Source: Candidatus Entotheonellaceae bacterium
GTDB lineage: Bacteria > Tectomicrobia > Entotheonellia > Entotheonellales > Entotheonellaceae
Reading direction: 5' to 3'
Length of the DNA stretch: 64,000 bases
Assembly (NCBI GenBank): GCA_965238075.1
Contig: OZ250173.1
Span: 1,152,001-1,216,000 of the forward strand
The position numbers were made by a program, and so were the translations under genes. Shown piece after piece: positions 12,668 through 53,995 of the stretch. The notes beneath the pieces are model-generated. The model did no database searches and had not been told where the DNA came from. It saw only the letters and a list, made by a program, of their open reading frames with translations. How positions within the stretch are numbered: position 1 is the stretch's first letter; each line of letters starts with the position of its first letter.

Positions 12668-13339
12668 TTACGATCCGGCATCGAGCGGTTGACCGTTCCA
12701 GCCTTCATGCCGGGCAAAATCCGACACCGGCTTGCGGCGCAGCCGGGTAAGCCGTCTGACCGGCTGACCCAATGGGACGACGGCGCTGACGGCAACGTGC
12801 GGCGGGATATTCAGCAACTCCTGCACCTTGGCTTCTTGGGCGACGGCCAACGTCGTAATCGTGCCGCCGTATCCCTCGTGCCGGGCCGCCAACAGGATGT
12901 TCCAGACGAAGGGATAGATCGACGCCCCGCTGATCACCCCCACCCGGTCGAGATACTGGTCCGTGGACGCCACCACCCGGAGGTCCACGCACACCACCAG
13001 CACCACGGGCGCCTGTATGAACGACTCCCGCAGCCGCGCCGGAGCGGAGGTGCCCTCGATGGTTGCCGCATCGACGCTCGTGGGCGACACCGAATTCCAC
13101 GGACTCTCGCCGGCAAGCTGCTGGGCGGCGTACCGCTTGGCCGCCGGTTCGCCCAATGCCGCCAGCGCTTCACGGGTTTGCTGCTGGCGCACGATCAGCA
13201 CGTGCCATCCCTGGCGGTTGCCGCCGCTGGAAGCAAAACGGGCGTTGTCGAGAATCGTGTAAAGCGTCTCGTCCGACACCGGCGCGTCGGTAAATTCCCG
13301 AGCGGAAAACGTCGTGCGCATCACCTCATACAATTCCAT
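12668..13339 (-). CDS. Nitroreductase family protein
   Basis: ARFASSGGNRQGW; NILLAARHEGYG. Confidence 0.88.
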   Translation of the reverse strand: MELYEVMRTTFSAREFTDAPVSDETLYTILDNARFASSGGNRQGWHVLIVRQQQTREALAALGEPAAKRYAAQQLAGESPWNSVSPTSVDAATIEGTSAPARLRESFIQAPVVLVVCVDLRVVASTDQYLDRVGVISGASIYPFVWNILLAARHEGYGGTITTLAVAQEAKVQELLNIPPHVAVSAVVPLGQPVRRLTRLRRKPVSDFARHEGWNGQPLDAGS

Positions 13340-43265: not shown

Positions 43266-44018
43266 ATGAGTGGTGGCTACGATATCGAGTTTTTCTGGGA
43301 TCCGGTGTGCCCCTTTGCGTGGATCACCTCGCGGTGGGTGGAGAAGGTGGCGGCGCAGACGGGTTACCGGGTGGATTGGCGTTTCATCTCGCTGCGGCTG
43401 CTGAACAAGCACAAGGACTATGCAACCGAGTTCCCACCCGATTATGAGCATTTCCACGGCGCCGGGCTGCGCATGCTGCGGGTCGCCGCCAAGGTACGGG
43501 CCGAGTTGGGCCGCGAGCACATGGGGCCGCTGTACGCGGCGTACGGCCAAGCCTATTGGGAGCAGGAGAAGGGCTCCGGCATGCGCCAGCGGCTGGGCAC
43601 CGCGGCGCACATCAGCGACACCCTGATCGCGGCCGGGCTGCCCACGACGTTCGCCGCCGCGGCTGACGACACCGGCTGGGACGCGGAGCTTGAGGCCGAG
43701 ACCGACCTGGCGCTCAGCCGCACCGGGCGCGACGTCGGCACCCCCATCATCACCTTCGAGCCGCCCGATGGGCTGTCGTTCTTCGGCCCGGTGATCTCGC
43801 GCGTGCCTAGCGATGCAGACGCCGTGACGCTGTGGAACGCCGTCATCACCCTGGCGCGGTTTCCCGGCTTTGCCGAACTCAAGCGCAGCCTGCGCGAAGT
43901 GCCGCAACTACGCCTGCTGGGCGCCCTCAGCGATGCCCCGGAACAGGAGGACTGGCAAGGCGGCCATCGTGCCGACGCGCTGCCGGGCGCGCAGGATGAG
44001 GGTAAAGACAAGGAGTGA
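43266..44018 (+). CDS. DsbA-like thioredoxin-fold protein (Rv2466c-like)
   Basis: FFWDPVCPFAWITSRW, DVGTP, FFGPVI. Confidence 0.85.
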   Translation: MSGGYDIEFFWDPVCPFAWITSRWVEKVAAQTGYRVDWRFISLRLLNKHKDYATEFPPDYEHFHGAGLRMLRVAAKVRAELGREHMGPLYAAYGQAYWEQEKGSGMRQRLGTAAHISDTLIAAGLPTTFAAAADDTGWDAELEAETDLALSRTGRDVGTPIITFEPPDGLSFFGPVISRVPSDADAVTLWNAVITLARFPGFAELKRSLREVPQLRLLGALSDAPEQEDWQGGHRADALPGAQDEGKDKE

Positions 44019-44022
44019 CGCC

Positions 44023-44661
44023 ATGGCCCTGTCGACGAGCGACATGACGGTTGCTGATCTGCTGGAGCGCTTCGGCCCGATCCCTGCCGCGCGCATTCGC
44101 ACCGATCCGCCGCCGGGCACCGCCACCGAGCAGGACGTGATCGACATCGAGAACCGGGAGTCCCGTCTCTGCGAGCTGGTGGACGGCGTGTTGGTGGAGA
44201 AAACTGTGGGTTATTACGAATCGTATCTGACTGTGCGGCTTATCTTGTTGATCGGTGCGTTCGTGGAACAACACAATCTCGGTTGCGTAACTGGCGCAGA
44301 CGGTATGATGCGCCTTGCGCCGGGCCTGGTGCGTATCCCCGACGTTTCGTTCGTCTCGTGGAATCAGTTGCCTGGGCGTCGTGTTCCACGAGTGCCGATC
44401 GCCGAACTGGCGCCGGATTTGGCAGTGGAGGTGATCAGTCCAAGTAACACAGCCCGGGAAATGGAACGAAAACTCCAGGACTTCTTGACCGCTCGCGTAC
44501 GGCTGGTGTGGTATGTGCTGCCGGTGCCTCAGGAGGTCCACGTGTACACCGCTGAGCGGCATGACGTTTTGACCATTGACCAGGAGCTTTCCGGCGGCGA
44601 CGTGCTGCCGGGGTTTGCGCTGCCGCTGCGGCGGCTGTTTGAAGAATCGGAGGATAGGTAA
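44023..44661 (+). CDS. Uma2 family endonuclease
   Basis: ELVDG, PDVSFV, PDLAVEVISPS, VLPGF. Confidence 0.9.
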   Translation: MALSTSDMTVADLLERFGPIPAARIRTDPPPGTATEQDVIDIENRESRLCELVDGVLVEKTVGYYESYLTVRLILLIGAFVEQHNLGCVTGADGMMRLAPGLVRIPDVSFVSWNQLPGRRVPRVPIAELAPDLAVEVISPSNTAREMERKLQDFLTARVRLVWYVLPVPQEVHVYTAERHDVLTIDQELSGGDVLPGFALPLRRLFEESEDR

Positions 44662-45518
44662 TGCAGGCCGAAACGCTGGGTGTTTGGTACGGCGCCGACA
44701 AGCTGGAACCGGCGCAGTGGATCGACTTCGTGACGACGGTGGAGCGGCTGGGCTACGATACGCAGTGGTATTCCGAGGCGATGGGGTTCGAATCCATGGC
44801 GTTCGGGAGCTTTCTGCTGGCTAACACGCAGCGGCTGAAAATTGGCAGCTCGATTGCCAACATCTATGCCCGCGACGTTGTGGCCTCGCGCAACGGGCTG
44901 AAAACGCTGGGGCGCATTTCGAATGACCGCTACGTGCTGGGTCTGGGCGTCTCGCACGTGCCGCTGGTGGAGCGCTTTCGCGGCCACACGTATGGCAAAC
45001 CGGTGGCGGCCATGCGCCATTACCTCGAACAGATGCGCGCCGAGCAGCCCGACGCCGATACCTGGCCGGTGGTTATCGCGGCTCTGGGGCCTCGCATGCT
45101 GGAACTGGCTGCCGAACTGACCCAGGGCGCCATTCCCTACAACGTGACGCCCGAGCATACCGCGCAGGCACGCTCGATCCTCGGCCCGGACAAATGGCTG
45201 GCCGTGGAACAGAAATTCTGCCTGGAGAGCGACCCCGCCAAGGCGCTGGAACTGGCACGTACCGAATTGTCGCGCTACATGGTGCTGCCCAACTATACCA
45301 ACAACTGGCGGCGCCTCGGCTTCAGCGGATCCGACCTGCAGGACGGCAGCAACGCCCGCTTTCTGAACGCCATGGTCGTGTGGGGTGACGAGGCCGCCGT
45401 CCGCGCCCGTATCCGGGAGCACTTCGACGCCGGCGCCACGCAGGTCTGCCTCCAACCCGTCCATCCCCAGGGCGACCTTGCCGGCGCCAAGGCGATGCTC
45501 ACCGCGCTGGCGCCGTAA
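44661..45518 (+). CDS. LLM class F420-dependent oxidoreductase
   Basis: IANIYARD, LGLGVSH, AALGPRML. Confidence 0.88.
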   Translation: MQAETLGVWYGADKLEPAQWIDFVTTVERLGYDTQWYSEAMGFESMAFGSFLLANTQRLKIGSSIANIYARDVVASRNGLKTLGRISNDRYVLGLGVSHVPLVERFRGHTYGKPVAAMRHYLEQMRAEQPDADTWPVVIAALGPRMLELAAELTQGAIPYNVTPEHTAQARSILGPDKWLAVEQKFCLESDPAKALELARTELSRYMVLPNYTNNWRRLGFSGSDLQDGSNARFLNAMVVWGDEAAVRARIREHFDAGATQVCLQPVHPQGDLAGAKAMLTALAP

Positions 45519-46050
45519 TAGTCATTATCCGATACGCTTAAAAATGCTGTGCGATCTGTTGGCCGTGTGTGGCCGAATCTTCGTCGGCCACTCGCCCTTT
45601 TCCGACTCCGCCAGCCAGGCGTCGCTGCTCGGCGTTTCCGGCGAGTCGATGTGATACACGGCGGCATACCTGGCCATGCCCTCGGCATTGCTCGACTCCA
45701 GCCGATACCGGTCGCAGCCGTGCACCCCCGGCGCTTTCAGGATATTGGGCACGTGCTCGGTGTCGTATACCCGGTTGAACTCGTCCTCCATCTCCGCCGG
45801 AATGTCCATCTGCACGAGATAAACGTAGTCCGCCATAGCGCCTCCATGATCTGACCTGAAAGGTTTGATTTGCTGGGAGTAAACGGGCACTGAGGTCGGT
45901 ATGGTAGCACCCGCCCGACATGGCAACAACAGCGCGAGGGGCAAGGTTCAGCGTCAATGTCCAGGAGCGTAACTGTCAGAATTGCCGCCAGGCGTTGATC
46001 CGTTCTCCCAGTGGGACGAGGAACTCGGCAAGCTCGGGCTGGCTGTCCTG
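45333..46050 (+). repeat. Direct repeat copy 1 (LLM 3' end + small gene + spacer + ATPase 3' end)
   Basis: Homologous to 50970-51720; 45567-45783 appears identical to 51207-51423. Confidence 0.9.
45525..45836 (-). CDS. EthD-like/dimeric alpha-beta barrel protein, copy 1
   Basis: 103 aa; EFNRVYDTEHVPNILKAPG; RBS ggagg. Confidence 0.75.
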   Translation of the reverse strand: MADYVYLVQMDIPAEMEDEFNRVYDTEHVPNILKAPGVHGCDRYRLESSNAEGMARYAAVYHIDSPETPSSDAWLAESEKGEWPTKIRPHTANRSHSIFKRIG

Positions 46051-47198
46051 GGTTTCCCGACGCCCGGCGATTCTGGCAATTCCAGGGCCGGTTTGACTCA
46101 ACTCTGCGGCGAATGCCTCGAGCGCGGCCTTTGAGTGATCGCCTTGCCGAACCATGCCTGTCATCATCTGATCAATGTCGCGCATTTTCCGGTCCATGTC
46201 CTGTGGCGACAGGCCTAGCAGCGGCGCGTACACGTCTCTCCGACGCCTCAGCGTTTGCCAGATCCAGCCTTCTGGCGGCTCGTTACCCAGCAGGAACAAC
46301 GGTTGCACGCTGCGATCGTCGCGGTCGAGGAAGATTCTCGCCTCCGGTGGCACGCTGTCCAGCACCACAGGACTGTGCGAAGCAACGATGATCTGCAGTT
46401 GTTGCCGCAGTGCGATGCGCTGCAACTCCAGCATGACTTGCTGTTGCGTGTAAGGGTGCAGACCCGTATCCACCTCATCAATCAGGATCAGAGCGTCATG
46501 GAGGCCTGAAACATCCTTTGAGATACGCAGAATCGCCCGTTCCCCGGAGGACATGTGGAACTCCGAGTAGCGCGTGTCCTGGTTTGTCTCCACCTCGGCA
46601 AACAGCAGGTCACGGCTCTGGGCGCTGATGAAGGAGAGGTTGCGGTACCGCTGGCGTAGGATATGGCGGGCGAAGACCAAAAGGTTGGGGGTCAGCGTAT
46701 CCGCCTGGTACTGCTTACGACCAAGCTGCAGGATGCCTCGAACCTCGGACGGATTGGCGAGATTGGCCAGGGTGCGCAGGTATACGTTGCGTTCCGGTTG
46801 CGTGCCGCCCTTGCGGCCCATGAAGCTGCGATTCCATGATTTGTTGCGCTTCCAGGCCAATGGACAGGCGCTCGTTATTGTGCAGGTAGTAAAAGGCCAG
46901 TTCCGTTTGCGCTGCGGTATCGGAGAGCGAGCCTCCTTGCCGATCTGTGAAATTGGGAAACAGGCTGCTCCCGCGATCCCCTGCCCGGTACGCGCAGGCA
47001 CAAGCGAACAGCACCGTGGATTTGCCGCAGCCGTTTGGCCCCGCCAGCACGGATACCGGATAGCCGAACGGCACACGCAAGTACCCTGATGCCCCGGAAA
47101 TTCCGAATGTGGACTTCCTGTAGCATGTCGCGACGCTGCGGCATGCTGGCACGCATGGCCTCCCATACCTTCTGCAGTTCTCTGACGATCAGTGACAT
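45976..47198 (-). pseudogene. AAA_21/OLD-like ATPase with two +1 frameshifts (about 47083 and 46859) and probable internal deletion
   Basis: IRNFRGI / GPNGCGKST / MSSGE, LIDEVDTGLHP and SHS are spread over three frames. Confidence 0.8.
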
Positions 47199-47385
47199 GC
47201 TTGGCATCCTCCCCTACCGGGCCGGCGTGCGTAAGCCTCGTCCCCGTAAGCAGCATGCGACCCGCGCTTATGGCCTGATTCAAGGATTGGGAAGGCGTTC
47301 GCTTGATGGTGAGGATCCTAAACCGAAATTCTCCTGACTTGGACTTGGGAGAGCATCCGCCGAGACGAATTGAGGAAGACCGCCT

Positions 47386-47475
47386 GACTTCATCCCCGCC
47401 TGTGCGGGGAACACGCATCGAAGACTGGGAAAAGGCATTGGGAACGCGGTTCATCCCCGCCTGTGCGGGGAACAC
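47386..47475 (-). CRISPR. Type I-E CRISPR remnant: 2 repeats, one 32-nt spacer
   Basis: GTGTTCCCCGCACAGGCGGGGATGAACCG at 47447-47475; degenerate terminal copy ending GAAGTC at 47386-47414; spacer 47415-47446. Confidence 0.92.
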
Positions 47476-47535
47476 TCGGCGACGGACGGGCAGCCAAGCG
47501 GCGTTGATCAGATTGAAGACGTCGGGCTCACACAT
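47476..47535 (-). pseudogene. cse1: N-terminal 20 codons of Cse1/CasA (Cas8e)
   Basis: MCEPDVFNLINAAWLPVRRR matches the FNL-x4-WLPV Cse1 start; downstream of cas3 on the same strand. Confidence 0.75.
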
Positions 47536-47673
47536 GACGCGTCTCGGTGGACACAGTACGCTGGACAGGTGGCAAGGCCGTCCGTCGATCTTGCCTCAAC
47601 AGGGAAAATCCGACAAACTCCCGAACGAGTCAAGCCCTATATACTGCACTAGACGATTCGTTGGGGGGATGAC

Positions 47674-47937
47674 ATGAATCTGTACCGGTTACGATCCGTT
47701 CTGCGGGAACCGTCGGACGAAACTGAGGGCAAGTACCTGGCCGAGATACCCGATTTGCCCGGTTGCCGGGCGTGGGGCGACACCGCTGCACAGGCTTTGG
47801 AAAGCCTGCAATGCGTTGCGGCAGCGTTCATCGAATCATACCGCGATCGCGGCGATCCTCTTCCGCCTCAAGTGGCCGCCGCTGTCGTTGACGCCAGCGA
47901 GCATCAAGGTTTCAGTGAAGTCATGGTCGCGGTTTGA
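47674..47937 (+). CDS. hicB: HicB-like antitoxin (short, no DNA-binding domain)
   Basis: YLAEIPDLPGCRAWGDTAAQAL. Confidence 0.9.
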   Translation: MNLYRLRSVLREPSDETEGKYLAEIPDLPGCRAWGDTAAQALESLQCVAAAFIESYRDRGDPLPPQVAAAVVDASEHQGFSEVMVAV

Positions 47938-48143
47938 GATACAGCGAACTCACACGCAAGCTGCATCGACTCGGATGCGTCCTGGACAGACGCGCTCGTG
48001 GCGATCACGAGATCTGGATTCGTCCATCGACGGGCGGCAGAACGACCATTCCAAATTGGGGCGGCCGTGAACTGAAAACAGGAACCGTCAGAGCGATCCT
48101 ACGGGACTTGGGTGTCACCCGCCAGGAATTCGACCGTGCATGA
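47934..48143 (+). CDS. hicA: HicA family mRNA interferase toxin
   Basis: ARGDHEIW, LKTGTVRAILRDLG; TTGA overlap with hicB. Confidence 0.88.
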   Translation: MRYSELTRKLHRLGCVLDRRARGDHEIWIRPSTGGRTTIPNWGGRELKTGTVRAILRDLGVTRQEFDRA

Positions 48144-48201
48144 ACGGCTCCTTGAAGCTGCCGACGGGAAGTAGTCTTCCGGGCATGGCTTGCCTTACCC
48201 C

Positions 48202-50925
48202 TCATCGTTCTTTCTTGTCGGTCGTCAAACCGCGCTGCGGACTATAGCTGAGCCGGACGTCCGTCGGCGTCTCGCCGCCCGACATTGCCGTTCCAGACCA
48301 GGTTTGATCCCCGGCCTCGGACTCCTCAAGCACCACCAGAATCTTGTCCGCATCGAACCGCGTCCAGTCCATCTTTGCCGCGCGGACAGCATCGGCATGT
48401 TCAGACGGCACGGCTTCGCCACCGACACGTCGCGCAGAAATGTTCACCTCGCTGAGCCGCCATGCCCGCCACGGCTCGCTCGGTTCGACATGGGGCGCGT
48501 AAGGCTCGATACGGTCACCGCGGACCCGTGCGAGCCGTAGCGTGACTTGCAGGTCGTCAACGAGCCGGGTTGGCGTGCGTACGTCGCTGTCCCAGGCACC
48601 GCCGTCTCTCACATAGCCCTTGGTAAGATCAAGTACGTTGGTGTTGGCCACCCCACGCTCGGCGCCCGCTCTGCCCTCTGCATCGAAGAAGCTGCCTTGC
48701 AATGCCTCTGGGACGGCCAGTTCGGCATCATCGCCGTATACGGCCTCAATGAGCGCCCGCAAACCGCCAGGGCTTTCGATGCTGCCGGCGTCAGCCAACG
48801 TTTTAGCCGTCAGCCAGAGGCGGGCGTGATCCTTGTAAACATACGCGGCGCGTGGAAAAGCCCGGCTGAACCACTTTTCGTCCGCGTCGGCGATGGGTTC
48901 CGGTCCCACCACGAGCAATTCCGGCTGCCCTTCACGTTCGGGGCGGTGGTGTCGCCACAGCCTGCCCGCACGTTGGATCAGCAGGTCAATCGGCGCGAGA
49001 TCAGTGATCAGGGCATCAAAGTCCAGATCCAGCGATTGCTCGACCACCTGCGTGGCGATCAGCACCTTGCCGGCTCGCTGCGTGGAGGTGCTGAGCTTAC
49101 CGAACGTCGCAACCACCCATTTCTCGATTCGCAGGCGGTCGACAAGCGCGAAGCGAGCGTGGAAGACCTCCGCAGCGAACCCTCTGGCCGTCAACGCGGC
49201 ATGGGCTTCGAGAGTGTCATCGACCGTGTTGCGAATGTAGAGCACGGCTTGGCCGCTGTGAGTTGCCTGTTCGACTGCGGTCAGCGCCTCCTCCGGGGTG
49301 CCGAGGAATCGCATCGGAAGCCTGCGCGCCCGCCCGGACTGTCCAAGAACCTTCATGGATGTGCGGACGTTGGCTCCACAGACCGTGGCCAATGGGTAGT
49401 CCATGTCGCTGATGACCGATCTGTGTGTTATCTCTTCGTTTCCCAACCCTTTCGAGAAAGCGCTGGCCAGCCGTTTACGGACCGAAAGGGGAAGAGTGGC
49501 CGACAGCAGGATCGCACAGCCACCCAGCCCTGCCTGGAATTCGAGCAGCCGCTCGATCTCGCGCTGCATATAGGCATCGTAAGCATGCACCTCATCGAGA
49601 ATGAGAACACGGCGCATGAGGCCCAACAGCCGCAGCGATTGGTGCCGACTGGGCAGAATCGACAACAATGCCTGATCCACCGTGCCGGCGCCCGCATCGG
49701 CCAGAAAGGCGCGCCGCCTGTCGTCGGCAATCCAGGCCGCGCAGGCTGCCGAGGCAGTCGTTTCAGAACCCTCCCCCCGACTCCCGGTTTGTGAATAGGG
49801 AGTCTCGTTGCGCCCGGCCGGCAGCACCGCCGACCGGAAACCGTCGTGCATGTCGCGCCCGCCGTGAGCCAGGGCAATCGAGGGGAAGGCGCCTGCTGAG
49901 AACAACTGCCGATACGCGGCGGCGAGCCGATCGAACATGGCGTTGGCCGTGGCCATGGTGGGCAGTGCCACATACAGACCGTCTGCCTGGCCGGACGCCA
50001 TCAGTCTGTGGGCGAGCATCAGGGCCGCCTCGGTCTTGCCGCTGCCCGTTTCGTCTTCGATCATGAACAGCGCCGCACCGTCCGGCAGTTCGACGCATTT
50101 AGCCCAGTCCTGCATCGGAGTTGGGGTCGCATCCGCCCCAATCAAGGCGCCGTAATCGAGGTGGTTGTTACTTTCGGCCGGCAGGACGCCCGACGCTTCA
50201 ACGGCGCTCTTCGCTTGTTCGCGGGCATGGTTCCAGTATGCCTGGAGGTCTTGAATCGGTTCGCAGTACGGAAACCATTCCTGCCTGGAGCCGATCCAGT
50301 CCGCCAGCACAGCAAAGCCGGCGAGGGCGAAAGACGCGCGCCGTACGCCTTCGCGTTCGAGCGGCGGCAACGCCTGCGGCAAGGCGAGCAGGTCGCGAGT
50401 CTGTTGGACGAACATATCGGCAGCCTCAATGCCTGCCTTGCCGAAGTCGGGCCGTAAGGTGACACGGTTCTCGCCGATAACCGGCTGCGGTGGGGCACCG
50501 TGATGCCCGACGACCGCCGAGACCAAGAGTCGCCAGACACGGTGGCTCGGTCCGCTAGGCAAATGGAAGAGGCCGTCATCTGCATCGAATAGGCGCAGCC
50601 CGCCAGCGCCGTGGTCGTAGCGGTCTGGAACAGAGGCGGGATCGTCACCGAGACAGCCGGGGTACAGTGCCGGCTCCTTTGCCTGAAATTTCTTGGCGAA
50701 CTTGCCGATGTCGTGCAGGCACAGAAGGAAGCAAAGGACGGGAATGAAGTCTTCACTGGGTAGGCCCAGTAAGTCGAGCAGGCTTTGTCGCAGGCCACGA
50801 TGCCGGGTCATCAGTGCCTCGCCGACCGCGGCGACATCGAGGCAATGGTACGGCAATGGGTGCCATTGGGGGCGGCGGTCGGGGTCGAGAGGCCGCGCCT
50901 TGCCCCAGAACGAGAGCTCATTCAT
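48202..50925 (-). CDS. cas3: Cas3 HD nuclease-helicase (type I-E)
   Basis: HCLDVA, LHDIGK, GHHG, ADWIGS, TGSGKTE, DEVH, SAT, QRAGRLWRH; uninterrupted 907 aa. Confidence 0.95.
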   Translation of the reverse strand: MNELSFWGKARPLDPDRRPQWHPLPYHCLDVAAVGEALMTRHRGLRQSLLDLLGLPSEDFIPVLCFLLCLHDIGKFAKKFQAKEPALYPGCLGDDPASVPDRYDHGAGGLRLFDADDGLFHLPSGPSHRVWRLLVSAVVGHHGAPPQPVIGENRVTLRPDFGKAGIEAADMFVQQTRDLLALPQALPPLEREGVRRASFALAGFAVLADWIGSRQEWFPYCEPIQDLQAYWNHAREQAKSAVEASGVLPAESNNHLDYGALIGADATPTPMQDWAKCVELPDGAALFMIEDETGSGKTEAALMLAHRLMASGQADGLYVALPTMATANAMFDRLAAAYRQLFSAGAFPSIALAHGGRDMHDGFRSAVLPAGRNETPYSQTGSRGEGSETTASAACAAWIADDRRRAFLADAGAGTVDQALLSILPSRHQSLRLLGLMRRVLILDEVHAYDAYMQREIERLLEFQAGLGGCAILLSATLPLSVRKRLASAFSKGLGNEEITHRSVISDMDYPLATVCGANVRTSMKVLGQSGRARRLPMRFLGTPEEALTAVEQATHSGQAVLYIRNTVDDTLEAHAALTARGFAAEVFHARFALVDRLRIEKWVVATFGKLSTSTQRAGKVLIATQVVEQSLDLDFDALITDLAPIDLLIQRAGRLWRHHRPEREGQPELLVVGPEPIADADEKWFSRAFPRAAYVYKDHARLWLTAKTLADAGSIESPGGLRALIEAVYGDDAELAVPEALQGSFFDAEGRAGAERGVANTNVLDLTKGYVRDGGAWDSDVRTPTRLVDDLQVTLRLARVRGDRIEPYAPHVEPSEPWRAWRLSEVNISARRVGGEAVPSEHADAVRAAKMDWTRFDADKILVVLEESEAGDQTWSGTAMSGGETPTDVRLSYSPQRGLTTDKKER

Positions 50926-50969
50926 GGCCGTGTCACCCCTCAATTCGGCGCTTGCAGCGGAAATTGGAC

Positions 50970-51720
50970 ACCTCCAGGACGGCGGCAATGCCCGCTTCCT
51001 GAACGCCATGGTCGTGTGGGGCGACGAGGCCGCCGTTCGTTCGCGCCCGCGTCCGGGAGCACTTTGACGCCGGCGCCACCCAGGTCTGCCTCCAACCCGT
51101 CCATCCCCAAGGCGACCTTGCCGGCGCCAAGACGATGCTCACCGCCCTGGCGCCGTAGCAAGCCTTACCCGATGCGCTTGAAAATACTGTGTGACCGGTT
51201 GGTCGCGTGTGGCCGAATCTTCGTCGGCCACTCGCCCTTTTCCGACTCCGCCAGCCAGGCGTCGCTGCTCGGCGTTTCCGGCGAGTCGATGTGATACACG
51301 GCGGCATACCTGGCCATGCCCTCGGCATTGCTCGACTCCAGCCGATACCGGTCGCAGCCGTGCACCCCCGGCGCTTTCAGGATATTGGGCACGTGCTCGG
51401 TGTCGTATACCCGGTTGAACTCGGCCTCCATCTCCGCCGGAATATCCATCTGCACGAGATAAACGTAGTCCGCCATAGCGCCTCCATGATCTGACCTGAA
51501 AGGTTTGATTTACTTGCAATAAACGGGGATGTCCTCGAACGCAGTCCAGCCCTGCGCGCCCGAGGGTCGGCATGGTAACACCCGTCCGGTACGGCAACAA
51601 ACAGGATAAGGCGCGTCATCAGCGCCAATATGCAGAAATGTAATCGTCAGGGTTGCCGCCAAGCGTTGATCTGCTCTTCCATCGGAACGAGGAACCCGGC
51701 AAGTACGAAGAGGAAATCCT
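50970..51720 (+). repeat. Direct repeat copy 2 (includes frameshifted LLM 3' fragment)
   Basis: LQDGGNARFLNAMVVWGDEAAV fragment, duplicate small gene and INAWRQ terminus. Confidence 0.9.
51165..51476 (-). CDS. EthD-like protein, copy 2
   Basis: 100 of 103 aa identical to 45525..45836. Confidence 0.75.
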   Translation of the reverse strand: MADYVYLVQMDIPAEMEAEFNRVYDTEHVPNILKAPGVHGCDRYRLESSNAEGMARYAAVYHIDSPETPSSDAWLAESEKGEWPTKIRPHATNRSHSIFKRIG

Positions 51721-51860
51721 GCAGCGTGCCGAACCTGCCAAGCATCCGAATGTGGGCCGGAAACTCTGCCTGCCCGGTGTTCCTGCCGATGACGAAGTAT
51801 TCATGCCAAAGGTCCAAGTGGGCGTTCAACACGTCCAGGACGCCGAGGATTACCCCGCCG
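51647..51860 (-). pseudogene. C-terminal remnant of a paralogue of the 45976-47198 ATPase
   Basis: LAGFLVPMEEQINAWRQP versus LAEFLVPLGERINAWRQF. Confidence 0.65.
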
Positions 51861-51899
51861 GCGCAGCGGTCGGGCGTATGTCGGGCCAACAGGTCCCCT

Positions 51900-52200
51900 G
51901 GATCCCCGCGATGGGGTTGGGGTGCTGAGCCGCTGTTCCTACGTGGCGGACAATGGTTTCTTTAGGCCGTGGTGGCAGTCGCATTGGCAAAGGCCCTGCG
52001 ACGCCTGCGTCCTGACGCCCAAGAACTATCCGGGAGATGGCGGTTGTGCAGCGCGCCGCCGACACGCCGGCTGGCGGCAACTTGTGGAGACCATCAACGG
52101 GCATCTGGAACAGAGCCTTTGGTTTGCACTTTACTTTCCTGGCGCCCGCAGCTTGTGGGGTCTGCAAAGCCGGATAGCCGCCAAATTGACGGCCTTGAGC
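51900..52200 (+). mobile_element. IS982-like transposase remnant
   Basis: YVADNGF...VLTP...RQLVETINGHL...ARSLWGLQSRIAAKL. Confidence 0.65.
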
Positions 52201-52249
52201 CCTGAATCAAGTAGCGCAGGCTCTGGGCTGCTTTGGAAACGGGGAACGG

Positions 52250-52534
52250 CTACTGCCGGTAGACGGTGTGAACGGGCCGGTCGCTCAGAATTTGCTCCGC
52301 ACCCCAGTTGACCACTTTCTTGAACTGATCCGACTGGATAAATGACTGGAAGGCGTCTTCCGAAGACCACTCGGAGACGATGAGGTAGGATTGGCCGTCC
52401 TGGACGTCTTTGTAGAGGGCCGACTTCGCGTGTCCTTCCATCGTTTGCAAGCTTTCCAGAACATTCGCGAAGACCTTTTCAAACTGAACCTCTTTGCCCT
52501 GCAAAACCCTGTAATTCATACCCACGGTAATCAT
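52250..52534 (-). CDS. Antibiotic biosynthesis monooxygenase (ABM) family protein
   Basis: YLIVSEWSSEDAF. Confidence 0.85.
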   Translation of the reverse strand: MITVGMNYRVLQGKEVQFEKVFANVLESLQTMEGHAKSALYKDVQDGQSYLIVSEWSSEDAFQSFIQSDQFKKVVNWGAEQILSDRPVHTVYRQ

Positions 52535-52656
52535 CTATCCCGATCCCCTTCACGGGTCCTGTTCGGTGCTTCGTTGCCCAGCGGCTATTCTTTGGCCAGC
52601 CTACCATGAAGTCGCCGGGCATGTCACTGGCGTCGTCCACGGGCAGGGAGCAGCCA

Positions 52657-52697
52657 TTCCCTCCCCCCGCCGATGGGGAGGGCCAGGGAGGGGGGCA
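52657..52697. repeat. REP-like palindromic element
   Basis: ccctcccc...ggggaggg-ccagggagggggg in an intergenic region. Confidence 0.5.
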
Positions 52698-52816
52698 TGA
52701 CCCGCTCCGGCGCCTCACCTTGTACCCTGCCGGGGCGCGTGCTAAGGTTTTATGCCCTACCGCGCCGCTGATTCACAGGCGGTATACGAAGCAATCCCAT
52801 ACATGAGGAAGTTGTC

Positions 52817-53995
52817 ATGGCGCTCGTGGAGCGGTTGACGTTCGGAATCTTCCTGGCTCCCTTCCACCGGCTTGGCGAGAATCCCACCCTGGCTCTGGAA
52901 CGCAATCTCGAATTGCTTCAATGGCTCGACCGCCTCGGCTACGACGAAGCCTGGATCGGCGAGCACCACAGCGCCGGATGGGAAACCATCGCCTCGCCCG
53001 AGGTGTTTATGGCCACGGCGGCCGAACGCACCCGCCACATCCGCCTCGGCACCGGCGTCGTCAGCTTGCCGTACCACCACCCGCTGATGGTCGCCAACCG
53101 CCTCGTCCTGCTCGACCACCTGACGCGCGGCCGCGTGATGCTCGGCGTCGGCCCCGGCGCCCTGATTACCGACGCCCACATGCTAGGCCTCAATCCCGCC
53201 CGGCAACGCGACATGATGGACGAATCGCTGACCGTCATTAAACGCCTTCTGACCGAGCCCGAACCCATTACCTACAAGAGCGACTGGTTTGAGTTGCGTG
53301 ACGCGCTCCTGCACCTGCGGCCTTACACCCAGCCGCACTTCCCCATCGCCGTCGCCAGCGTCCAGTCGCCCGCCGGCGTCGAATTAGCCGGCAAGCACGG
53401 CGCCGGCGTCCTTTCCCTGAGCGCCTATGCAGGCGTGCGGGGCGTCGTGGCGCTGCCCGAGCAGTGGAAGATCGCCGAGGAAAGCGCGGCGCTGCACGGC
53501 AACACCATGGACCGCCGGGGCTGGCGGCTGGTGATGCCGATTCACATAGCCGAAACGCGCCAGCAAGCCTTCGACGAGGCGCGGCACGGGGCCGCCGCGT
53601 GGCTGCAGGAGTATTTTCGCGACACATTGGGGCAGCCCTTGCCGCCGGATACCGCGCCGGACGACCTCATCGAGGTGATGAGCGAAAATGGCGCCTGGCT
53701 GGTCGGCACACCGGACGACGCCATCGCCACCATCGAACGGCTCGCTAACATCAGCGGCGGCTTTGGCGGCCTGCTGGGCCTGGCGCACGAGTGGGCGCCG
53801 CGTGAAAAGATTCTCCACAGCTACGAATTGCTGGCGCGCTACGTCATACCGCGCTACAACGGCTCCCTGGCCGGTATGGTCGGTTCCAATGCCTGGGCCC
53901 GCAGCGCGCGTGAGGAGTTGGGCGTCCAGCGCCAGCAAGCCATCGAAACGGCCCACGCCGAGTACGAGGCGCGTCAAGCCGCATCCACCAGGTAA
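52817..53995 (+). CDS. LLM class flavin-dependent monooxygenase
   Basis: FGIFLAPFH, WIGEHHS, LDHLTRGR. Confidence 0.9.
   Translation: MALVERLTFGIFLAPFHRLGENPTLALERNLELLQWLDRLGYDEAWIGEHHSAGWETIASPEVFMATAAERTRHIRLGTGVVSLPYHHPLMVANRLVLLDHLTRGRVMLGVGPGALITDAHMLGLNPARQRDMMDESLTVIKRLLTEPEPITYKSDWFELRDALLHLRPYTQPHFPIAVASVQSPAGVELAGKHGAGVLSLSAYAGVRGVVALPEQWKIAEESAALHGNTMDRRGWRLVMPIHIAETRQQAFDEARHGAAAWLQEYFRDTLGQPLPPDTAPDDLIEVMSENGAWLVGTPDDAIATIERLANISGGFGGLLGLAHEWAPREKILHSYELLARYVIPRYNGSLAGMVGSNAWARSAREELGVQRQQAIETAHAEYEARQAASTR

Follow-up and report, generated by a model that had tools for sequence, protein, structure and literature searches.

How a CRISPR repeat came to lie directly against the twentieth codon of a cas gene is the question raised by a type I-E locus of a Candidatus Entotheonellaceae bacterium. 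The window, which here means the whole 64,000-nucleotide stretch of DNA that was analysed, carries an intact cas3, the first codons of cse1 and a single repeat-spacer-repeat unit. Decayed CRISPR-Cas loci are common, and this object is itself an ordinary decayed type I-E locus. Its junction is unusually clean.

Layout and surroundings of the remnant

Read along the minus strand, cas3 is followed by a hicBA pair on the opposite strand, a 138-bp intergenic region, the cse1 stub, a full repeat, one spacer and a terminal repeat that is degenerate at its last three bases (Table 1). An earlier note on this DNA had described cse1 codons 1-20 as running into base 1 of an intact repeat, followed by a 32-nt spacer and a degenerate terminal repeat, and this arrangement can be read directly in the sequence. 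The final 42 nt of the stub are identical to cse1 of the congener G003. The 29-nt partly palindromic repeats, their 61-nt spacing and the 32-nt spacer have the form of a type I-E array. An Rfam scan of positions 44000-53000 returned no match at E values up to 1, so the typing of the repeat rests on the complete I-E operons of relatives. The window contains two copies of the 27-nt repeat core, which appears in none of 100 shuffles, and only two copies exist across the whole one-contig genome of 3,352,321 bp.

The same note had observed that the frame entered by the stub remains open through the array, and a 519-aa ORF is indeed found at 45976-47535. The tail of this ORF shares the C-terminal frame of an AAA_21 ATPase. 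Hence, it is a chimera of cse1 stub, array and ATPase pseudogene, and not a gene.

Table 1. Features of the type I-E remnant and of the islet around it, in window positions.
Feature	Position	Strand	Remarks
Direct repeat, copy A	45334-45697 (by blastn to ~46032)	+	3' end of an LLM oxidoreductase gene and a DUF4286 gene
AAA_21/AAA_15 ATPase pseudogene (PADLOC HEC-04-like)	45976-47207	-	Three frames, ~318 nt missing; downstream of the trailer
Degenerate terminal repeat, GTGTTCCCCGCACAGGCGGGGATGAAGTC	47386-47414	-	Ends ...GATGAAGTC; same as the G005 terminal repeat; trailer beyond it conserved
Single 32-nt spacer	47415-47446	-	Between full and terminal repeat; target searches empty
Full 29-nt type I-E repeat, GTGTTCCCCGCACAGGCGGGGATGAACCG	47447-47475	-	Base 1 (first G, 47475) abuts cse1 codon 20
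cse1 (casA) stub, codons 1-20	47476-47535	-	Reads ATG...CGTCGCCGA; translation MCEPDVFNLINAAWLPVRRR
hicB-cse1 intergenic region	47536-47673		Between divergent starts; position only; presumed cse1-operon promoter site (inferred)
hicB antitoxin gene	47674-47937	+	4-nt overlap with hicA; Pfam HicB_lk_antitox 1e-07, 32.6 bits against a cut-off of 27
hicA toxin gene	47934-48143	+	Between cas3 and cse1; Pfam HicA_toxin 9.7e-18, 64.5 bits against a cut-off of 27
cas3 (type I-E Cas3e), intact	48202-51009	-	ORF of 935 aa; conserved start MNELSFWGK at ~50925 gives 907 aa
Direct repeat, copy B	50970-51337 (by blastn to ~51701)	+	91-93% identical to copy A, 5,640 bp away

The two hic genes encode adjacent domains above their cut-offs and form a predicted HicAB pair. 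Among congeners, G005 and G001 have hicBA, G002 aligns to it only in part, and G004 lacks it. This patchy distribution points to a lineage-specific insert inside the CRISPR-Cas locus. The ATPase that is broken in the window is intact in G002, where a 523-aa homologue is encoded (L019:2988-4556; PADLOC HEC-04 3e-38, ATPase-Toprim 2e-23), and blastn places the gap of the pseudogene at G002 1092 to 1410. In the pseudogene region, one base, at 47083, is missing from relatives in the sequencing runs X17, X1 and X18. Upstream of cas3, an 80-aa ORF on the minus strand (51647-51889) resembles an internal/C-terminal part of the ATPase (...VIGRNTGQAEFPAHIRMLG...INAWRQP). As this is the part absent from the downstream pseudogene, the ORF reads as a second, fragmentary ATPase copy.

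Direct repeats of 0.4-0.7 kb bracket the whole islet from cas3 to the ATPase. The same bracket is common to G005, G001 and G004 and is therefore old. Recombination between its two copies would delete the islet cleanly. Taken as a whole, the surroundings of the locus are those of a defence islet in decay.

Extent of the deletion

Orthologues of cas3 were found in 15 of the 41 related genomes searched, including all five congeners; at the level of the phylum, the collection holds 17 genomes, 10 of them with Cas3e. For comparison of the loci, 20 kb around cas3 was retrieved from four congeners. All four have a repeat identical to that of the window, in arrays of 35, 4, 73 and 58 repeats. Their locus occupies the same chromosomal site as in the window and has the order cas3-hicBA-cse1-cse2-cas7-cas5-cas6e-cas1-cas2-leader-array. 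In G005, the closest congener, the genes between cas3 and the array encode Cse1, Cse2, Cas7, Cas5, Cas6e, Cas1 and Cas2, each above its Pfam cut-off.

By blastn, the window aligns to the G005 locus in two blocks. Positions 51731-47476 correspond to L015 2406-6658 at 92.6% identity, positions 47475-46910 correspond to L015 15120-15701 at 90.5%, and synteny with G005 holds at 90-95% on both flanks. Relative to G005, 8,461 bp are missing, or 6,050 bp (L015 6659-12708) if the kept repeat was the leader-proximal one. After cse1 codon 20, all five congeners read AG(C/T)GGTGCC at the point where the window has the repeat. The earlier note had allowed that the stub might fail to align to Cse1. A tblastn search with G005 Cse1 settles this point, since it matches only window positions 47476-47556 (70% over 27 aa, E 5e-5); in G005, the stretch equivalent to the stub takes up the opening positions of the Pfam Cse1 model, and the upstream DNA aligns to G005 unbroken until 47476.

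Because cse1 passes codon 20 in all five congeners, the form in the window is a derived, lineage-specific deletion that runs from cse1 codon 21 through cse2, cas7, cas5, cas6e, cas1 and cas2 and includes the leader. The DNA in front of the repeat is cse1 coding sequence, and the AT-rich leader of the relatives (...TTTATTTTTTAG...GAAGA) is absent. If the array was longer in the ancestor, everything except its last repeat-spacer-repeat unit was lost as well. At the join, cse1 ...CCGA is followed directly by GTGTTCC, with no filler bases and no trace of a mobile element. The two central claims of the earlier note, namely the loss of Cascade, cas1-cas2 and leader and a breakpoint exactly at a repeat edge, are borne out by this comparison: a full operon or array is present in all four fetched loci, cse1 extends further in 5/5 congeners, and the join falls at repeat base 1 with zero inserted bases.

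The window is thus like the type I-E locus of G005 (L015 3027-15209; the E. coli K-12/Thermus kind) in its cas3 (91% at the amino acid level), hicBA insert, cse1 start, 29-nt repeat, 32-nt spacers, terminal repeat and trailer, and in its site with flanking repeats. Unlike that complete locus, it is devoid of cse1 from codon 21, cse2, cas7, cas5, cas6e, cas1, cas2 and leader, and it has one spacer against 3-72 in relatives. CRISPR arrays that are orphaned or degenerate, and remnants without cas genes, occur elsewhere, for example in E. coli lineages. The window resembles such orphan arrays in having an array, presumably inert, without effector or adaptation genes. It departs from them in that cas3 is intact, a cas-gene stub is fused in frame to a repeat, and the ancestral structure can be read from sister species.

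Routes to the join

An ordinary low-homology deletion is the best-supported mechanism on the sequence evidence, and we lean towards it with modest confidence. The join would have formed by illegitimate recombination with 0-2 nt of homology, through slippage during replication or through alternative end-joining. Most economically, a 6.05-kb deletion would have run from the GA of cse1 codon 20 to the GA that ends the leader, and the kept repeat would be the old first repeat. The loss may have been tolerated, or even favoured, if keeping the system was costly or led to autoimmunity; decay has also reached the ATPase defence gene next to it. Short arrays do occur in the genus, as the four repeats of G001 illustrate.

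Several details of the sequence bear on such a route. The leaders of all four relatives end in ...AAGA before GTGTTCC, and the stub ends in ...CCGA before GTGTTCC, so a join on 2 nt of microhomology is possible. Imperfect homology extends beyond the GA in a by-eye alignment (cse1 GA-A-GTG-G-T-G-CC against leader/repeat GA-GTG-T-T-C-CC). The accessible text of PMC6990116 describes alternative end-joining on 1-9 bp in bacteria. Against microhomology, two nucleotides are weak and apply only if the kept repeat was leader-proximal; for an internal repeat, 11 of the 165 spacers of relatives end in GA and 36 of 165 in A. A GTG microhomology with a G003-like parent was tried and rejected, as it predicts CCGAAGTG, with an extra A, where the window has CCGAGTG. 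Of the ordinary microhomology that the earlier note had named as a competing explanation, the 2-nt GA shared by the stub and 4/4 leaders stands and the GTG version falls. It also counts against an ordinary deletion that a random breakpoint would, by our own arithmetic, have a chance of about 1 in 61 of meeting a given repeat edge. Known routes of array loss, in the part of PMC8047081 that is accessible, are recombination or slippage between repeats. Such routes cannot join a repeat to cse1.

The same geometry can also be read as the work of the Cas1-Cas2 integrase, which would have made the break or the join and so led the adaptation machinery to delete its own operon. We regard this as possible and rather unlikely. 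In one version, a chromosomal 3'-OH end in cse1 would have been strand-transferred in cis to the leader-side border of a repeat as a half-site product. In the other, a Cas1-Cas2 nick at a repeat border would have turned into a break at replication and then been end-joined. In E. coli, integration in vivo is limited to prespacers of about 33 bp, which speaks against the proposal. Nivala et al. reportedly described ectopic or off-target spacer integration in 2018.

Biochemical work on enzymes from other systems bears on the integrase proposal. In the accessible portions of PMC8390005, a type II-A enzyme in vitro transfers 3'-OH ends to two places, the leader-repeat junction in the top strand and the repeat-spacer junction in the bottom one, and its water-mediated disintegration keeps a nick between L/R or R/S. 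For the type I-E system of E. coli, the available text of PMC5389526 places about 70% of half-site integrations in vitro at the borders of all repeats; in vivo, it confines integration to the leader-repeat boundary, which counts against the proposal. The join in the window lies at repeat base 1 on the crRNA-sense strand, with the upstream DNA ending 3' at the border, and its polarity is that of the first strand transfer. It is like half-site integration or disintegration, as far as the accessible parts of these two papers describe them, in having 3'-ended DNA at the first base of the repeat, on the top strand, without filler. It is unlike the Cas1-Cas2 product described there in that the incoming DNA is chromosome and not a prespacer of ~33 bp, and in that the result is a deletion. 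Of the features expected of an integration product, DNA joined exactly at a repeat border is present, whereas a spacer-length insert and a repeat duplication are missing, the event being a deletion of 6-8.5 kb.

Breaks in further arrays of the genus extend this comparison. In G001 (L016 12712-12740), the fourth and last repeat reads ...GATGAACCG (repeat end ...AACCG) and is followed by TCCCGAGACC from the middle of a HEC-04-like ATPase gene, the junction region spanning 12712-12800. The parental sequence in G002 reads ...GGACAG and then TCCCGAGACC; homology continues for more than 400 nt at 94.8%, and one G is shared. The truncation in G001 is an independent deletion ending at a repeat-spacer border. 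It is like the event in the window in starting exactly at a repeat border with at most 1 nt of perfect homology, in the same locus family. It is unlike it in using the repeat-spacer border on the other side of the array, with the cas operon intact. The polarities correspond to the two strand transfers, the window join being of the top-strand type and the G001 join of the bottom-strand type, and use of the other border by an independent deletion speaks for the integrase.

A further irregularity occurs in G005, where a 430-bp stretch (L015 14690-15119) lies exactly between two full repeats and is found nowhere else in the five genomes. It contains a 128-aa ORF with a signal-peptide-like start, for which no relative was found in Pfam, PHROG or viral contigs. 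It could represent a 'spacer' of excessive size, or else a gene that has settled within the array. Its resemblance to an oversized spacer would fit integrase activity.

The evidence from G002 points the other way. A displaced trailer-end piece of its array lies ~86 kb from the main locus (L019, C1:421734-421821) and consists of a 12-nt partial repeat, spacer, repeat, spacer and terminal repeat, followed by a window-like trailer and the intact ATPase gene. The piece lies directly against the end of a transposase-like ORF, and a solitary repeat lies on the other strand (L020, C1:322853-322879). This displacement looks like an IS-mediated rearrangement. Since the array break falls inside a repeat, not every break in the genus is at a border.

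The array ends of G004 and of the main array of G002 did not resolve against parental sequence and were left out of the count. The count then stands at 2/2 non-IS deletions at exact repeat borders, together with one insert that has two exact borders. The probability of such coincidences by chance is, on our estimate, well under 1 in 100, a suggestive figure that comes from a small sample and from definitions set partly after the first case. The search of other array breaks for a border-specific process followed the hypothesis, and its outcome was favourable (window, G001 and G005). A shared cause for the window junction, the G001 deletion and the G005 insert, by which Cas1-Cas2 in this genus would act in vivo on non-prespacer DNA at repeat borders and here excise its own operon, is less likely again than an integrase origin of the window join. 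Counting against the integrase in general are the small number of events (one in the window and one in a congener only), the derivation of the reading from the sequence geometry of the system and the simpler route offered by the GA microhomology. A search of the literature, supplements aside, returned no report of a natural cas deletion at a repeat border.

A third explanation, which we consider quite improbable, sees the junction as an autoimmunity scar. Cas3 would have been brought in by a self-targeting spacer, or by a crRNA directed at the array it came from, and would have broken down DNA in the direction of the cas genes; a survivor would have rejoined the ends and lost Cascade. Type I-E Cas3 is said to travel from its target in the leader/cas direction relative to the kept repeat, and the deleted segment does lie on that side. 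Self-derived spacers arise in the genus as well. The assembly of G003 (290 contigs, 6% contamination) contains a 3-repeat array (L021, C18:61676-61824) with the repeat variant ...GCACGGGCGG... and two spacers from core genes. The first matches G003 itself perfectly (C231:8772-8803), has at most three mismatches in 5/5 congeners, and matches an ABC-F ATPase gene at 31/32 positions in the window's genome (C1:2071803-2071834; 5' flank AAC). The second matches an LLM oxidoreductase gene, at 29/32 positions in the window's genome (~3081483-3081514; 5' flank AAG).

Loss of the cas operon is a documented escape from self-targeting, according to the accessible parts of PMC3630108 and PMC6990116, and the window is like these cases in its outcome, interference genes being removed and a target-free cell surviving. 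Unlike it, the laboratory cases are of type I-F, and their junctions are not compared with repeat borders in the portions of those papers that were available; the surviving spacer of the window shows no self-match. It also speaks against autoimmunity that cas3, encoding the damaging nuclease, is the sole gene kept intact and that the breakpoints are tied to no protospacer. Autoimmunity would in any case concern the cause of the break, and it is compatible with joining either by low-homology deletion, the preferred reading, or by the integrase.

Fate of the remnant and meaning of the junction

The earlier note had proposed that the mini-array could be used by a Cascade encoded elsewhere, a suggestion that finds no support in the rest of the genome. 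Pfam profile searches of the genome for Cse1, Cas7 and Cas1 gave zero matches; the Cse1 model, which matches only one of 14 control genomes, was not relied on alone. Searches of the whole genome by tblastn with eight G005 Cas proteins recovered only cas3 and the stub. All other matches were at E 0.07 or worse, with nothing below E 0.07 for Cse2, Cas7, Cas5 and Cas6e and nothing below E 0.6 for Cas1 and Cas2. Of the Cascade set (cse1, cse2, cas7, cas5, cas6e), only 20 cse1 codons are left, and cas1 and cas2 are absent from the genome, whose completeness is 93% though it is a single contig. Other I-E loci, for which the note had suggested a search, are equally missing from the genome, as is a second array. 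A k-mer scan of the whole genome for spaced repeats gave 12 clusters; the mini-array aside, those resolved by TRF are tandem coding repeats, and no other CRISPR-like array was found in the 3.35 Mb. With no Cas6e, Cascade or Cas1-Cas2 in the genome, the mini-array cannot be processed, guide interference or grow, and the locus is, judged from its gene content, a dead remnant of a chromosomal CRISPR-Cas system of type I-E.

The spacer adds nothing that would point to use. It has no second copy in its own genome, its best match among phages has E 0.9 and its best among plasmids E 0.2 (27/30 nt), so that host, phage and plasmid searches offer no usable target. Exact and sixth-position-degenerate patterns of it gave zero matches in viral, metagenome and genome contigs. 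It is also absent from the 165 spacers of four relatives, whose arrays share no spacer mutually. The description of it as the oldest spacer is apt in the trailer-proximal sense only, and it does not extend to a spacer held in common with any relative.

It is very improbable that stub and mini-array nonetheless form a working unit whose transcript starts at the cse1 promoter and serves either in trans or, together with the orphan Cas3, as a regulatory RNA. The cse1 start and its upstream region are retained, both repeats are intact enough for folding, and cas3 is under purifying selection. Yet there is no Cas6e to cut the repeats and no Cascade to hold a crRNA, a scan of 47200-47800 for the sigma-70 consensus found zero promoter-like sites, the spacer has no target in the data searched, and zero runs recorded as RNA contain the stretch. 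A single terminator-like candidate from the scan of 47200-47800 was discarded, being merely the repeat hairpin plus spacer. When the mini-array is folded, the two repeats pair with each other only, at a z-score of -2.0 that is not informative.

The state of cas3 bears on the timing of the loss. The protein has the HD nuclease and helicase domains of a type I-E Cas3 (Pfam Cas3_HD 2.1e-40, Cas3-like_C_2 2.5e-31; PADLOC Cas3e 1e-196). The gene has no internal stop, is 82-92% identical to its counterparts in five congeners and keeps the HD, Walker A and DEVH motifs. In a crude three-point NG86 estimate, dN/dS on its branch is ~0.17-0.18, against 0.20-0.31 on sister branches. The loss looks recent because cas3 is intact and its dN/dS is not raised. 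Either the deletion is recent or cas3 was retained for another reason, and a recent deletion is favoured.

Sequencing runs offer a view of the junction beyond the assembly. Four of 22 runs were examined as Logan contigs. In X15, which contains 1.00 of the sampled words, a 63-nt contig spans 47450-47512 and a 90-nt contig spans 47385-47474, both with zero differences; X15 may be the source sample, so its support is not independent. The 63-nt contig has 26 letters on the repeat side, fewer than the bridge rule of 31, and the stub-repeat join is still visible in it. Confirmation of the junction in reads, as the earlier note had proposed, is therefore partial: the join is there, but no contig carries 31 letters on both sides of it. 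The number of spacers, one, rests on the one-contig assembly, as short contigs cannot count units. A junction pattern with wobble positions left open gave zero matches in metagenome and genome contigs, from which the window's own record was possibly excluded. The search likewise yielded neither a second assembly with the join nor an intact allele whose last spacer matches that of the window.

X15, X17 and X1 each contain a contig or contigs whose sequence continues from 47476 into an intact cse1. The one in X15 (record 14) is 1,123 nt long and has one difference in 37 nt over window positions 47476-47512. In X18, an 11.4-kb contig separates a repeat from cse1 codon 20 by ~6,047 nt, about as long as a complete operon and its leader. 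In at least one sample, relatives with an intact locus are found alongside the deleted form. The intact-cse1 contig of X15 could be a co-occurring relative or an operon-bearing sister allele. Depths in X15 are ~108-110 for the junction contigs, 50.9 for the intact-cse1 contig and 148.6 and 154.4 for the flanks. They hint at flanks common to a deleted and an intact form within one sample, but depth gives no share of cells, and no conclusion is drawn from them. An assembly artefact, that is, a collapse or chimera at the repeat, is hardly credible even with arrays that are difficult to assemble, the intact-cse1 contig in the same run and the short overhang at the join, for the repeat is absent from cse1, so that a collapse cannot make a stub-repeat join, the 63-nt sequence is a de Bruijn contig holding both partners, the single-contig genome contains none of the seven missing genes, and the intact-cse1 contig, with its one differing letter, may stem from a co-occurring relative.

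The value of this locus lies in the sister species, which keep the parental sequence and so make the junction readable to the base, something that is rarely possible. For annotation, the 519-aa ORF is not to be called a gene, and the genome is to be scored as CRISPR-inactive despite its intact cas3. If breakpoints of cas-array deletions do cluster at repeat borders, the adaptation integrase would, in nature, give rise to genome rearrangements and to the loss of CRISPR. Were this true, it would provide a sequence signature with which other genomes could be searched, and the window would represent a natural footprint of integrase-driven CRISPR-Cas self-destruction.
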